A DNA stretch of 64,000 nt from Nitrosopumilus sp. (GTDB taxonomy: Archaea > Thermoproteota > Nitrososphaeria > Nitrososphaerales > Nitrosopumilaceae). The stretch covers positions 832,001-896,000 of the forward strand of contig OZ240211.1 in assembly GCA_965197525.1 (NCBI GenBank), given 5' to 3'. The notes beneath the pieces were generated by a model. That model made no database searches, was not told where the DNA came from, and saw nothing but the letters and a program-made list of their open reading frames with translations. Shown in pieces: positions 60,152 through 63,136 of this stretch. A program made the position numbers and the translations under genes. The first letter of the stretch is position 1. Each line of letters begins with the position of its first letter.

Positions 60152-60691
60152 TTGCAACTAACTGAGGAGAATCATCATATGATAACGTTGCCTGATTTGG
60201 TACAACCTAGAATGAAAGTTGTATTTGTAGGAACAAATCCCGGGACAAAATCAGCACGAATAGGGCATTATTTTGCAGGTAATAGTAATATGTTTTGGAA
60301 ATTATTATATGAATCTAATTTGACAAAAGAACGGCTTACAACGGAACAGGATAACAAGTTAATCACATATGGTCACGGCCTCACAGATGTGATAAAACGA
60401 CCTACGCGTTCTACATCAGAATTACGAAGAGATGATGGAAACGGTGCAAGAGATCGTTTGAATTCCATTATAGAGAAAAACAGACCTAGCATAGTTGCGT
60501 TTGTAGGTAAAACAGGTTTTAGATACTATCTTGACTACAAGGGTAAATCTATCAAGTATGGTATGCAAAAATTCAAGATTGCCGAATCTTCTGTATACCT
60601 CCTCCCATCTACCAGTGGCCAGAGTTTTGCAGACACTAGTTACAAAGAGAAACTATTTTGGTATAAAAAATTAAAAAAAATTATATCATGA
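60152..60691 (+). CDS. Mismatch-specific DNA glycosylase (MUG/TDG, UDG family 2), copy 1
   Basis: VFVGTNPG, GHYFAG..N.FW, GLTDVIKRPT and LPSTSG motifs. Confidence 0.9.
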   Translation: MQLTEENHHMITLPDLVQPRMKVVFVGTNPGTKSARIGHYFAGNSNMFWKLLYESNLTKERLTTEQDNKLITYGHGLTDVIKRPTRSTSELRRDDGNGARDRLNSIIEKNRPSIVAFVGKTGFRYYLDYKGKSIKYGMQKFKIAESSVYLLPSTSGQSFADTSYKEKLFWYKKLKKIIS

Positions 60692-61087
60692 ATTTTCTTG
60701 AAATTAAAAAAAGAATCCCAGTACTGACAAAATACATCACGAGAGTTTATTTGGCTACATCGTTGGTTAATTGCAATGAACAAAATACTAGAACCATCAT
60801 TAGAGTATCAATTGATTTGAAATGACAATTGTTAATGAATAGACAGTATAGGATAATCCAAAATTAAATTCAATAGATTTAGTTAGAGACGCCAACATTG
60901 TTAAAAAATACGATATTTGTGTTTCAGAGATCGCCAAACCAAGTACTAAAATAGATATTAATATTACGACTGCAAAGATGTTCACGAAAAAAAATCAGAT
61001 GCGTGTATAGATACAAATGTTTCAAACGCGGGTTTAGGAATAGTCAACCGTAGAGTTTTTTAAGGACTTGTATGCTAAAATAACAAG

Positions 61088-61567
61088 TTGAATTCACCTG
61101 AAAAACTACTAACTCTGTTTCAGGCAATAGACAAAAAACTCTCCATGAATCAGTTTGATGACAAGTTAGAAATTCAAAAAATCACTTACCTAGCTCAAGA
61201 ATATGGGATTGATTTAGAATATGAATTTGAATGGAATAAACGCGGACCATACTGCAAACAAGTATCAGAGCATGCACATATAATCATAGATTCCAGCAGG
61301 AATATCAGTATTGATAATAACTTGAAAAATGAGAAGGAAAAACTATCACAATTTGTAAAAATAATAAAACCTTACATGGATAACACTGAATGGTTAGAAA
61401 TTGCAGCTTCGCTATTATATTTACGAAAAGACAGCTATGAAAACATGGAATTGAATCAAATAATAGGATACCTTATTGAAGACTTGACGTACGGTTACAA
61501 GAATTTCAATGAGGCGTTGGTTAGAAAAGCAATTTCCGAAATGTCGAAGAAAGGATTTTTGACATAA
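61088..61567 (+). CDS. Hypothetical YwgA/Panacea(DUF4065)-like protein
   Basis: KLEIQKITYLAQ...YEFEW...GPYC and WLEIAASLLYL resemble antitoxin-like HTH domains. Confidence 0.55.
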   Translation: MNSPEKLLTLFQAIDKKLSMNQFDDKLEIQKITYLAQEYGIDLEYEFEWNKRGPYCKQVSEHAHIIIDSSRNISIDNNLKNEKEKLSQFVKIIKPYMDNTEWLEIAASLLYLRKDSYENMELNQIIGYLIEDLTYGYKNFNEALVRKAISEMSKKGFLT

Positions 61568-61603
61568 CGAAAAAATTCTTCGTTAAAATTATCGTGATAT
61601 GTT

Positions 61604-62622
61604 TTGTGGGACAATAAATGGAAAGAACTACTGAAGGATATTTCTACTAATGGTGTACTGGTATCACGAAAAGATTCAACTAGAAACACACAAGAAACTG
61701 TTTCATACAAATTTGAGATAGATGATTCTAGAAACAGATTAATCTCTGATGAATTACGTGGTATTGATATTTTTCAATGTGTTGGGCAATTTTTATGGAT
61801 TACACAAGGAAATTTCAATGTAGAAGCAATAAAGTATTACCAGCCGATCTCGGACAAATTTTCATCAGATGGGGTCAAAATGATAGGTGCATACGGTCCA
61901 AGATTATTTGGTATCCAACATCTTAATCAGATAGAGCACGTCATAGATACATTAACAGAAGATCCTGGAAAAGAAGGGCTGTAGCATCAATTTATTTGCC
62001 ACAATTTGACCAACACGAATTTGAAAATGAAGAAGTGCCGTGTACTCTGAATCTACAATATCTCATCCGTGATGACAAATTACAGGCAGTAACTTACATG
62101 AGAAGTCAAGATGCATTTAATGTGTTACCATATGATTTTTTCATATTCACAATGCTACAAGAATATCTTCTAAACAGATTAAAACCAGAACACCCAGAAT
62201 TCCAACTTGGAAGATATAATCATTATAGTGGAAGCTTCCATGTTTATCAGAAAGATCTAGATAAGATTAACAAAATCACAGACAATCAATCTTCAAAAAA
62301 CTTTACTATGAAGAAGATGCCATCAAAAAATGTAGAACTTCGTTTACGCGCATTGAATATATTTGAATCAATAGTAAGAACGGCAACATTAGCTAAAGGC
62401 AAGTATAAGATAAAATTTGATTTTGATGCAATGGTAGACGTGATGAATGACTCGTTGAAAGATGAATACTGGAGACAATTAGGATTGATATTATTATCAT
62501 ATAGTGCAATACAGACAGAAGACAGAGAAAGGCATAAACAAATATTTGATTTGTTAGATCCAGAATACAAATATTTTGTAAAACTCCATATTGACAAACA
62601 TCGTCTTACTGGATTCTATTAG
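61604..62622 (+). pseudogene. Thymidylate-synthase-superfamily protein (cytidylate hydroxymethylase/methylase-like) split by a single-base frameshift at about 61969
   Basis: ORFs 61604..61984 and 61996..62622 join as ...GAYGPRL...EDPGK-RRAVASIYLPQFD...VPCT...MRSQD...LPYD...GSFHVY if one A is added to GGAAAAGAAGG. Confidence 0.82.
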
Positions 62623-63136
62623 AATATCTTCTAAGATTTCTATACCATCCTAGTTTTTCATCATAACTTGTGTCCGCATAACTCTGTCCACTAGTAGATG
62701 GAAGAAGATAGATCCTAACATCCTTGTAATAATGTTGAAATCCATATTCTAAAGATGAATAATAGTTATTGGAATAAATCCTAAAACTCATTTTCCCAAC
62801 AAAAGCAAGAATTTTTGGAGATATCATATTCAAAGTACGGTTTAATCGTTGTATGTTTTGGGCCGTGTATTGTTTTTTAATAACAGTTATGTTACTAGTA
62901 GGCTGTTTTATAATATCAGTCAGTCCATAGCAGTAGTTTAACATATAATCATCCTCTTCTGTTTTTAACTGTCGATCTGTCAACTTTGATTCGTAAAGTA
63001 ATCTCCAAAACACGTTAGAGTGACCGGCAAAATAATGGCCTATTTTTGAAGATTTGGTACCCGGACTTGTACCTACAAATAGAATTTGTAGACCTTTTTT
63101 GATTATATCAGGAAGCGGTCGTAAAATTTCTGCCAA
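62606..63136 (-). CDS. MUG/TDG-family DNA glycosylase, copy 2 (GTSPG variant)
   Basis: LFVGTSPG, GHYFAG..N.FW, GLTDIIKQPT and LPSTSG motifs; convergent with and overlapping the TS-like gene. Confidence 0.88.
   Translation of the reverse strand: MAEILRPLPDIIKKGLQILFVGTSPGTKSSKIGHYFAGHSNVFWRLLYESKLTDRQLKTEEDDYMLNYCYGLTDIIKQPTSNITVIKKQYTAQNIQRLNRTLNMISPKILAFVGKMSFRIYSNNYYSSLEYGFQHYYKDVRIYLLPSTSGQSYADTSYDEKLGWYRNLRRYSNRIQ

Follow-up and report, generated by a model that had tools for sequence, protein, structure and literature searches.

In this study, we analyzed a 64,000-nucleotide stretch of a Nitrosopumilus sp. chromosome (contig OZ240211.1, positions 832,001 to 896,000; hereafter the window), taken from a complete Nitrosopumilaceae genome of 2.21 Mb, and found that it holds an inserted, AT-rich island bearing the remains of a five-gene cassette. 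The cassette encodes a homologue of thymidylate synthase (TS; the TS-like protein, or writer), a small protein of 159 residues (p159), two DNA glycosylases of the MUG/TDG family (MUG1 and MUG2) and a nucleotide hydrolase resembling human DNPH1. We tentatively favor a model in which this is a mobile toxin-antitoxin or defense cassette built like DarTG, with a writer of a modified nucleotide, an inhibitor of the writer and erasers of its product, which has decayed in this genome. The local copy appears to be dead: the hydrolase and writer genes are broken, and the open reading frames (ORFs) of p159 and both glycosylases are whole. Because the writer and hydrolase genes are dead, the cassette cannot function as a whole here, and the working writer-plus-excision module that an earlier note had proposed for this island has to be given up for this genome, its writer being a pseudogene. 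Gene identities, residue signatures, cassette conservation, the insertion and the gene breaks were all computed here.

The island is an insertion with two broken genes

A 20-kb stretch around the island was compared with 17 genomes from the same genus, and in over 15 of them the sequences flanking the island lie only about 110-130 bp apart. Positions ~59650-63890 are therefore extra sequence in this genome, and the island is an insertion. Its edges were read at ~3647 and ~7890 of locus L013, in which a position plus 56000 gives the window position. GC content is 0.26-0.34 within 59650-63890 and 0.36-0.43 outside, and the sequence on both sides of the genes (59650-60150 and 63137-63890) is non-coding, in keeping with the AT-rich island with non-coding flanks that had been described earlier. 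The gene order MUG1 (+), p159 (+), TS-like (+), MUG2 (-), also read earlier, is borne out by the ORF list and by Pfam. Homology to other copies of the module is confined to 60109-63178, and the non-coding sequence farther out is peculiar to this genome. Coordinates of all features are collected in Table 1.

The TS-like gene is split between two frames. Its N-terminal piece aligns with residues 1-123 of intact relatives of 333-339 residues at 76% identity, and the C-terminal part is about 71-72% identical to residues 123-339 of one such relative (P0002). The motifs PC, RSxD and LPYD that the earlier note had picked out are indeed present, as VPC, RSQD and LPYD: the C-terminal part carries the catalytic Cys (EEVPC), RSQD, LPYD and a MilA-type C-terminal helical domain. 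At the deletion site the window reads GGAAAAGAAGGG, and the closest intact relative (L007) reads GGAAAGAGAAGGG. Independent contigs from two samples match the window across this site without any difference; both samples belong to one study, and one of them may be the assembly's own source. To all appearances, then, the TS-like gene is a pseudogene in this genome through a real 1-nt deletion, and the frame correction suggested earlier has a physical basis. Sequencing error is unlikely as the cause, given that the contigs of the two samples agree. A programmed frameshift was ruled out, since the relatives have no slippery site and the closest of them differs by a plain 1-nt deletion.

The second broken gene was found by comparison with L007. 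The 397-bp gap between MUG1 and p159 in the window still aligns with the hydrolase gene of that locus, and the remnant retains 48% identity to its product over 62 residues (tblastn, E = 1.5e-10). The damage is extensive: the start codon has changed from ATG to ACG, several indels and stop codons have accumulated, the catalytic Glu is gone and ~250 nt, the 3' third of the gene, are deleted. The motif PS-x-G-x-G-x-E, seen as PSTGIGIEIM in L007 and PSLGVGYELG in human DNPH1, has become PSTKIDINIT in the frameshifted window copy. The intact L007 hydrolase matches PF05014 (1.7e-10) and is far closer to human DNPH1 (6.7e-8), which the Protein Data Bank (PDB) names as a 5-hydroxymethyl-dUMP N-hydrolase, than to MilB (0.079).

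Conservation, distribution and decay of the cassette

The association of TS-like, p159 and MUG genes, which the earlier note had drawn from this single locus, recurs in every related archaeal locus with enough flanking sequence, about 25 distinct loci from genomes and metagenomes. In most of them, a MUG2-type gene follows the TS gene in convergent orientation, often with overlapping 3' ends, and MUG1 lies upstream; a Nuc_deoxyrib_tr gene encoding 115-150 residues sits between MUG1 and p159 in about half. The gap between p159 and the TS gene is 36-45 nt in every archaeal locus with enough flank, an antitoxin-upstream-of-toxin pairing as in type II modules, and the pair holds down to 26-37% p159 identity. 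We dropped the idea that some p159-TS pairs lack a MUG gene: in L142, a pair at that level of p159 identity, a frameshifted MUG gene lies just upstream, and in L021 the MUG gene has been split off by an IS66 insertion. Most cassette copies are intact and conserved in sequence.

The distribution of the cassette is nonetheless patchy. Only 2 of the 201 species genomes of the Nitrosopumilaceae carry the TS-like writer. The MUG type accompanies the writer in both, and one further genome has a remnant of it; the rest of the 201 have none. The remnant genome (G080) has lost the TS gene and MUG2 and retains a whole p159 gene and a frameshifted MUG1. Decay has occurred repeatedly, in this window, in G080 and in loci L162 and L142; the damage beyond G080 includes a split MUG2 and an IS66 insertion. 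The genes next to the cassette are not the same in each locus; among them are transposases and a HaeIII-like fragment. This fragment, 161 residues from a restriction enzyme of the HaeIII type, immediately precedes the closest intact cassette (L007:3707-4192) and has IS66 and DDE_3 transposases on either side. No structural, replication or integrase genes were found in or beside the ~25 loci.

We found no paper describing this layout. PADLOC-DB v2.0.0, a library that dates from 2023 and is older than the Brig papers, holds no system model for the cassette; p159 alone has a match, to the C-terminal portion of DarG, and the MUG and TS-like proteins have no real match. The layout thus corresponds to no named system that we found, in line with the earlier note, and all of its parts come from known families.

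The writer is predicted to act on dCMP

The TS-like gene gives the sole PF00303 match in the genome. The gene for dTMP synthesis is thyX, located elsewhere; ThyX covers this function, and the TS-like pseudogene plays no part in it. The housekeeping ThyX (G000:C1:97151-98518) has two tandem Thy1 domains inside one open frame of 565 residues.

Because the local copy is broken, we characterized the family through its ~60 intact relatives. Searched against the PDB with phmmer, P0002 matched MilA best (2.2e-29), ahead of true thymidylate synthases (~1e-12) and T4 dCMP hydroxymethylase (8e-8), with bit scores of 105.9 for MilA and 34.9 for T4 gp42. An AlphaFold2 model of P0002 (predicted local distance difference test score, pLDDT, 87) gave the same picture, overlapping MilA (5jp9_B) across 332 columns in Foldseek (E = 8.5e-21; TM-score 0.82/0.87). 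The overlap takes in the C-terminal five-helix domain that is present in MilA and absent from ThyA; where ThyA has a short folate-closing tail, the TS-like proteins have a MilA-like helical domain of ~100 residues.

The active-site residues point in the same direction. The catalytic Cys of the P-C motif is at least 90% conserved in the family. Asp (in LPYD) replaces ThyA Asn177 (E. coli numbering) in all tabulated archaeal, bacterial and viral relatives, as it does in MilA (Asp186); in ThyA, Asn177 selects uracil, and Asp at this position marks cytosine users (PMC5175136). Glu stands where ThyA has the hydrophobic Leu143, which excludes water, and MilA likewise has an acidic residue there. These features support the earlier assignment of the protein as a cytidylate-type TS homologue, which we would now describe as an enzyme of MilA architecture.

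The choice between CMP and dCMP is suggested by two further positions. MilA prefers ribose (CMP) by virtue of Ala176 and Lys133', and an A176S/K133R double mutant loses CMP activity while keeping dCMP activity almost intact (PMC5175136). The cassette writer, unlike MilA, has Ser (ThyA S167) and Arg (ThyA R126) at these positions, each at least 90% conserved. Since these are residues of the deoxy type, dCMP rather than CMP is predicted as the substrate, and of the (d)CMP specificity proposed earlier we would retain the dCMP part and not the CMP part.

As for the product, an acidic residue at position 143 has been tied to non-methyl products and Asn169 to 5-hydroxy-dCMP (5hodCMP) synthases (PMC13326640, 2026). 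The window copy reads RSQD, with Asp at the E. coli Asp169 position and hence without the 5hodCMP-synthase mark; the reaction of the intact enzyme is therefore predicted to be dCMP to 5-hydroxymethyl-dCMP. In its predicted substrate and product class and in its residues at ThyA positions 143, 167, 169 and 177, the writer resembles T4 gp42 and the phage 5hodCMP synthases (PMC13326640). It differs from gp42 in being cellular, in having no dCTPase, dNMP kinase or glycosyltransferase alongside and in standing closer to MilA. The D169N signature of the phage 5hodCMP synthases recurs in 14 of 64 distinct archaeal relatives, which read RSQN and belong mostly to one clade, and for about a fifth of relatives it points to 5-hydroxy-dCMP as the predicted product. 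The tree of archaeal relatives requires just 2-3 switches between Asp169 and Asn169. We considered and dropped an Asn169 subtype without MUG2, as L018, L019 and L020 combine both. Both residues also occur within one 2.23-Mb genome of Nitrosopumilus sp. (contig OZ252243.1), which has two cassette copies at separate places (L017 and L019): one is Asp169 with a DNPH1-like gene, and the other is Asn169 without the DNPH1-like gene and without MUG1.

Relatives of the writer also occur outside archaea, in other company. Those in bacteria and viruses are 31-39% identical, all have Asp177, and have aGPT-Pplase3/ADDT, an HTH-M78 regulator or DUF4031 as partners; no MUG, p159 or DNPH1-like neighbor was found in the bacterial and viral loci examined. 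In 72 bacterial loci (L022-L093) and some viral ones, the writer relative forms a widespread operon with aGPT-Pplase3/ADDT, usually followed by a divergent HTH-peptidase-M78 regulator, and the bacterial operon often also has DUF4031 or an Mrr-type nuclease. Given Asp at the ThyA Asn177 position in all bacterial relatives, this hypermodification cassette probably starts from cytosine and not from thymine. Relatives on viral contigs and phages are 28-36% identical, those in GenBank phages only 28-31%. Neither the MUG alignment nor p159 yielded any relatives when used to scan the viral contigs of IMG/VR.

p159 resembles the toxin-binding domain of DarG

The earlier note had labeled the 159-residue protein as YwgA/Panacea-like and cast it as a regulator or antitoxin. 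The antitoxin role gains support from our searches, and the Panacea part of the label is borne out only faintly. Pfam gave no match to p159, with none to PF13274 (Panacea/SocA) even at an E-value of 10. By contrast, p159 matched the DarG models of NCBIfam (6.9e-7, model positions 172-279) and PADLOC (1.3e-8). The matches are restricted to positions 168-291 of the 329 in the DarG model; the N-terminal macrodomain is absent from p159, and no macrodomain gene was found among the island ORFs. An exhaustive search yielded 706 representative relatives, mostly of 150-170 residues. A profile of 81 relatives matched PDB chain 7yk3_B (5.6e-8), which is DarG in a crystal structure of M. tuberculosis DarTG, and the same chain was the sole convincing fold match (Foldseek probability 1.00; TM-score 0.60) of the AlphaFold2 model of p159 (pLDDT 95). 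We conclude that p159 is, on these profile and fold comparisons, homologous to the toxin-binding C-terminal domain of DarG. The direct tests thus favor DarG over Panacea, which only 1 of the 81 relatives matches, weakly (PF13274, 0.0054); the nearest named Atlas cluster to p159 (score 0.81) holds the Panacea family in 13% of its members. A relation to Panacea, if real, would be remote. The p159 family nevertheless resembles Panacea (PanA/SocA) in being small, stand-alone and encoded upstream of very different effectors.

Those effectors are diverse. Among 301 genomes of the phylum, 40 have the p159 family, and one genome can hold as many as 12 copies; family members lie directly upstream of genes for HD plus HD_assoc_2 proteins (5 loci and 2 metagenomic ones), PIN domains (4), PemK/MazF (1) and a C5 DNA methylase (1), besides the TS-like writer. 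In the methylase locus (L265:806-2157), the p159-family gene overlaps the start of the gene for the C5 cytosine DNA methylase, which is another cytosine-C5-modifying partner. This range of partners looks like the pattern of an antitoxin domain serving many toxins. Two more p159-family genes of this genome lie at C1:1874904-1875290 (L147) and C1:1505377-1505835 (L148). One of the two is convergent with a PIN-domain gene, 1 nt away, and the other encodes 208 residues and also matches the C-terminal part of DarG (2.4e-7).

Structure prediction lends weak support to binding between p159 and the writer. The predicted complex of P0002 with its own p159 scored 0.53, a mark attained by 58 out of 80 solved complexes and by 2 out of 110 mismatched pairs, passes at or below 0.60 being mostly wrong without a good prior; the best of 3 controls scored 0.01. 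Runs of this complex share at least 93% of contacts, with partner pLDDT of at least 87.

The glycosylases carry unusual residues

Both glycosylases recognized earlier belong to the family-2 UDG-fold proteins, and they are 49% identical to each other. In the PDB, MUG1 matched E. coli MUG (1.2e-21) and human TDG (1e-20), and the likeness of MUG1 and MUG2 alike is ~1e-21. Neither reaches the NCBIfam MUG equivalog cut-off of 144 bits (MUG1 105.6, 2.1e-30; MUG2 85.3), scores that place them in the MUG family without making them equivalent. The ORF finder starts MUG1 at a TTG codon (60152), and its orthologues begin at the ATG at 60179. MUG2 is convergent with the TS-like gene, and their 3' ends overlap by 17 nt.

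MUG1, like all of its orthologues, retains the catalytic Asn (GTNPG), and it has the PS-S-G motif. MUG2 does not keep this Asn and, to this extent, departs from the earlier description of two glycosylases: it reads GTSPG, with Ser in place of the catalytic Asn, and its orthologues with a readable motif have Ser or, in one case, Arg (GTRPG). Across 81 clusters of the clade, this position is Asn in 66, Ser in 10 and Arg in 1. Asn140 is essential in human TDG, and Asn191 is required for acid-catalyzed excision of 5-carboxylcytosine, whereas E. coli MUG has Lys at the latter position (PMC9800633). In the MUG clade described here, MUG1 and MUG2 included, Asp stands at the TDG Asn191 position in 80 of 80 readable members, compared with Asn in three more ordinary MUG-like proteins from other Nitrosopumilaceae; the rarity of this Asp rests on few outside references, a word-index search with MUG1 having returned only its own clade. 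Asp at this position may suit a cytosine-type leaving group, and we infer that MUG2 may be a weak or binding-only enzyme. The Ser of MUG2, the clade-wide Asp and the fifth, DNPH1-like gene all go beyond the earlier note.

Features of the flanks

In the left flank, the two arms of an imperfect 33-nt inverted repeat (59809-59841 and 59941-59973; 82% complementary) enclose a perfect palindrome of 40 nt made up of A and T only (59893-59932); no further copy of this element was found anywhere in the genome. In the right flank, sequence resembling two stretches (~63235-63311 and ~63605-63703) is also present at C1:1111014-1111749 and in four more parts of the genome, at 74-90% identity, and a small repeated element may have left them. 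Both stretches occur jointly at G000:C1:1111014-1111749, adjoining a methyltransferase-like ORF. A search of the island ends for att sites or direct repeats, tRNA genes and an integrase found none, and an Rfam search of the island gave no match up to E = 0.1. At the left edge, two small ORFs (59228-59646) encode a 50-residue protein with two Cys pairs and an 82-residue coiled-coil-like protein; both are syntenic in congeners and belong to the conserved core genome, outside the island.

Table 1. Coordinates of the island and its features in the window
Feature	Position	Strand	Remarks
Whole inserted island	59650..63890	none	4.2 kb; AT-rich; delimited by congener synteny and GC drop
Left non-coding flank	59650..60108	none	Palindrome and inverted repeat; no homology to other module copies
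MUG1, family-2 (MUG/TDG) UDG-fold DNA glycosylase	60179..60691	+	Intact ORF; Pfam UDG 9.7e-18
DNPH1-like (Nuc_deoxyrib_tr) dNMP N-hydrolase pseudogene	60739..61040	+	tblastn and DNA alignment against the intact L007 gene
p159, 159 residues, putative stand-alone DarG C-terminal-domain homologue	61088..61567	+	Intact ORF
TS-like gene, N-terminal piece (126 residues)	61604..61984	+	PF00303 5.4e-5; apparent pseudogene, MilA-like
1-nt deletion site in TS-like gene	61969..61975	+	Inside codons of the phosphate-binding Lys-Arg-Arg segment
TS-like gene, C-terminal part	61972..62622 (ORF 61996-62622)	+	-1 frame; PF00303 7.2e-8
MUG2, MUG1 paralogue	62606..63136	-	Intact ORF; Pfam UDG 9e-15
Right non-coding flank	63137..63890	none	Two short stretches repeated elsewhere; no homology to other module copies

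Discussion

Our results are consistent with a model, held tentatively, in which the intact cassette is a toxin-antitoxin or defense system. The writer would be the toxin, a MilA-family enzyme converting dCMP to 5-hydroxymethyl-dCMP, and p159, encoded just upstream, would be the antitoxin, restraining the writer by direct binding. Two erasers would remove the product or what deamination makes of it, the DNPH1-like hydrolase from the nucleotide pool and MUG1 from DNA; MUG2, without the catalytic Asn, would be a weak or binding-only partner. Loss or titration of the inhibitor, as might happen during infection, would let modified cytosine flood replicating DNA, and base excision would then convert it to abasic sites. 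This model fits the patchy, mobile and often decaying distribution of the cassette. Depletion of the dCMP pool was also considered as a mechanism and seems unlikely, since the main route to dCTP does not pass through dCMP.

The nearest known system is DarTG. The two are alike in that p159 is, by our comparisons, homologous to the DarT-binding C-terminal domain of DarG, and both would combine the writer of a harmful modification, a blocker that binds it and an enzyme that removes the modification. Unlike DarTG, however, the cassette has neither a DarT ADP-ribosyltransferase nor a macrodomain; its writer is predicted to act on free dCMP and not on DNA, and separate proteins would carry out the removal, through excision of the base and hydrolysis of the nucleotide. 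There is also recent precedent in defense for both kinds of enzyme. The TS/aGPT-Pplase candidates of DefensePredictor (Science 2026) place host-encoded TS homologues in defense cassettes, and one of these, which combines TS with dNMP kinase, 5hmdU kinase and NMAD domains, proved to be anti-phage in E. coli (PMC13092281). Glycosylases with the UDG fold protect bacteria from phages that have modified cytosine (PMC13160076). Bacterial relatives of our writer resemble these candidates in sitting with aGPT-Pplase3/ADDT and an HTH-M78 regulator. Unlike such loci, which are without MUG, p159 or DNPH1-like genes where bacterial and viral examples were examined, the archaeal cassette has no kinases or transferases.

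Several considerations weigh against the toxin-antitoxin model. We know of no dCMP hydroxymethylase that is toxic. The cassette has no dNMP kinase or dCTPase, and phage systems need a cognate kinase for the modified nucleotide to enter DNA (PMC13326640); without a cassette kinase, incorporation by host kinases therefore has to be assumed. The modeled interface between p159 and the TS-like protein is weakly supported, and p159 could be a regulatory subunit instead of an antitoxin, as the partners of its family include proteins that are not classic toxins (HD, DNA methylase). Should the glycosylases do no more than protect the host, self-modification would be an equally good account of the cassette. 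MUG1, p159 and MUG2, intact although the writer is dead, may also serve some purpose of their own. Finally, every functional step of the model is inferred, namely the enzyme product, p159-writer binding, toxicity, the glycosylase substrates and the defense role.

The toxin-antitoxin model can also be given an abortive-infection form. Here the base written in the nucleotide pool would enter replicating invader DNA and lead to destruction by the cassette's own glycosylases, retuned by the Asn-to-Asp change at TDG-191 toward 5-hydroxymethylcytosine (5hmC) or 5-hydroxycytosine (5hoC), and the wider p159 family would constitute a Panacea-like antitoxin superfamily guarding nucleotide-targeting effectors in archaea. 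We consider this combination, taken as a whole, unlikely.

The main rival to the toxin-antitoxin model, although we hold it to be rather unlikely, is self-modification with dedicated repair. The writer would give host DNA some 5hmC as protection or as a mark, the hydrolase would remove 5-hydroxymethyl-dUMP derived from it by deamination, the MUG enzymes would excise 5-hydroxymethyluracil (5hmU) opposite G (or T:G and U:G mispairs) and p159 would tune the enzyme. Mammals are understood to handle 5hmU in this way, with DNPH1 acting in the pool and a 5hmU-excising glycosylase in DNA, and the likeness of the cassette hydrolase to DNPH1 (6.7e-8) offers a parallel, so that the joint presence of DNPH1-like and MUG genes is well accounted for. 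MUG/TDG enzymes excise U, T and 5hmU opposite G (PMC3488261), and the pairing of bacterial and viral writer relatives (31-39% identity) with aGPT-Pplase3/ADDT indicates that products of this clade do reach DNA. However, no dCTPase, kinase or transferase is there for efficient substitution, and a module present in just 2 of 201 species genomes and frequently decayed sits poorly with a host modification. The absence of the catalytic Asn from MUG2 and the Asp at TDG-191 in both glycosylases would be unexpected for plain repair of U, T or 5hmU, and the antitoxin-like partner profile of p159 is left unexplained.

It is quite unlikely, in our view, that the glycosylases alone form a defense in which they excise 5hmC or 5hoC from viral DNA, with the TS-like and p159 genes as an unrelated, hitch-hiking toxin-antitoxin or regulatory pair. 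There is a precedent: Brig1 and Brig3, which are UDG-superfamily glycosylases set beside the MUG proteins by description, defend against phage by excising modified cytosine (PMC13160076). The Asp at TDG-191 in 80 of 80 clade members would fit a cytosine-type leaving group, and the cassette is distributed like an island. The linkage of MUG2 to the TS gene is nevertheless too tight for chance, the two being convergent with overlapping 3' ends in most loci, and among the 201 genomes this MUG type never occurs without the TS gene or a TS remnant. A host that made 5-hydroxymethyl-dCMP and also carried a 5hmC glycosylase would attack itself unless the two were functionally coupled.

We think it very unlikely that the cassette is the leftover of a virus or plasmid with modified cytosine in its own DNA and has no present cellular function. 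An AT-rich insertion with two genes broken here and writer relatives on viral contigs and phages (28-36% identity) would agree with such an origin. Nevertheless, structural, replication and integrase genes are missing in and beside the ~25 loci, one compact cassette recurs in many chromosomal contexts, MUG and p159 have no relatives in IMG/VR and most copies are intact and conserved in sequence. Least likely is a small-molecule route of the MilA/MilB type from the mildiomycin pathway, in which a hydroxymethylase and an N-glycosidase would free 5-hydroxymethylcytosine as an antimetabolite precursor or signal: the MilA architecture of the writer and, in some loci, its pairing with a hydrolase of the superfamily of MilB, the N-glycosidase that works with MilA (PMC4081090), speak for it, but the writer has the deoxy-type Ser and Arg in place of MilA Ala176 and Lys133, the hydrolase is present in only about half of loci and is far closer to DNPH1 than to MilB, the setting is not an antibiotic biosynthesis cluster and has no tailoring or export genes, and two DNA glycosylases and an antitoxin-like protein would have no role there.

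In summary, the island should be annotated in this genome as a non-functional remnant and its TS-like gene as a pseudogene with no role in dTMP synthesis. If the toxin-antitoxin model is true, a TS homologue would join the effectors of toxin-antitoxin and defense systems, and the C-terminal domain of DarG would be a widely used stand-alone antitoxin in archaea. The cassette would also bring to light a MUG/TDG clade in which conserved changes from Asn to Asp and from Asn to Ser hint at new base specificities, and such enzymes could help to map 5hmC or 5hoC. For the ammonia-oxidizing archaea, whose interactions with viruses are poorly known, it would be among the very few candidate defense systems specific to the group.

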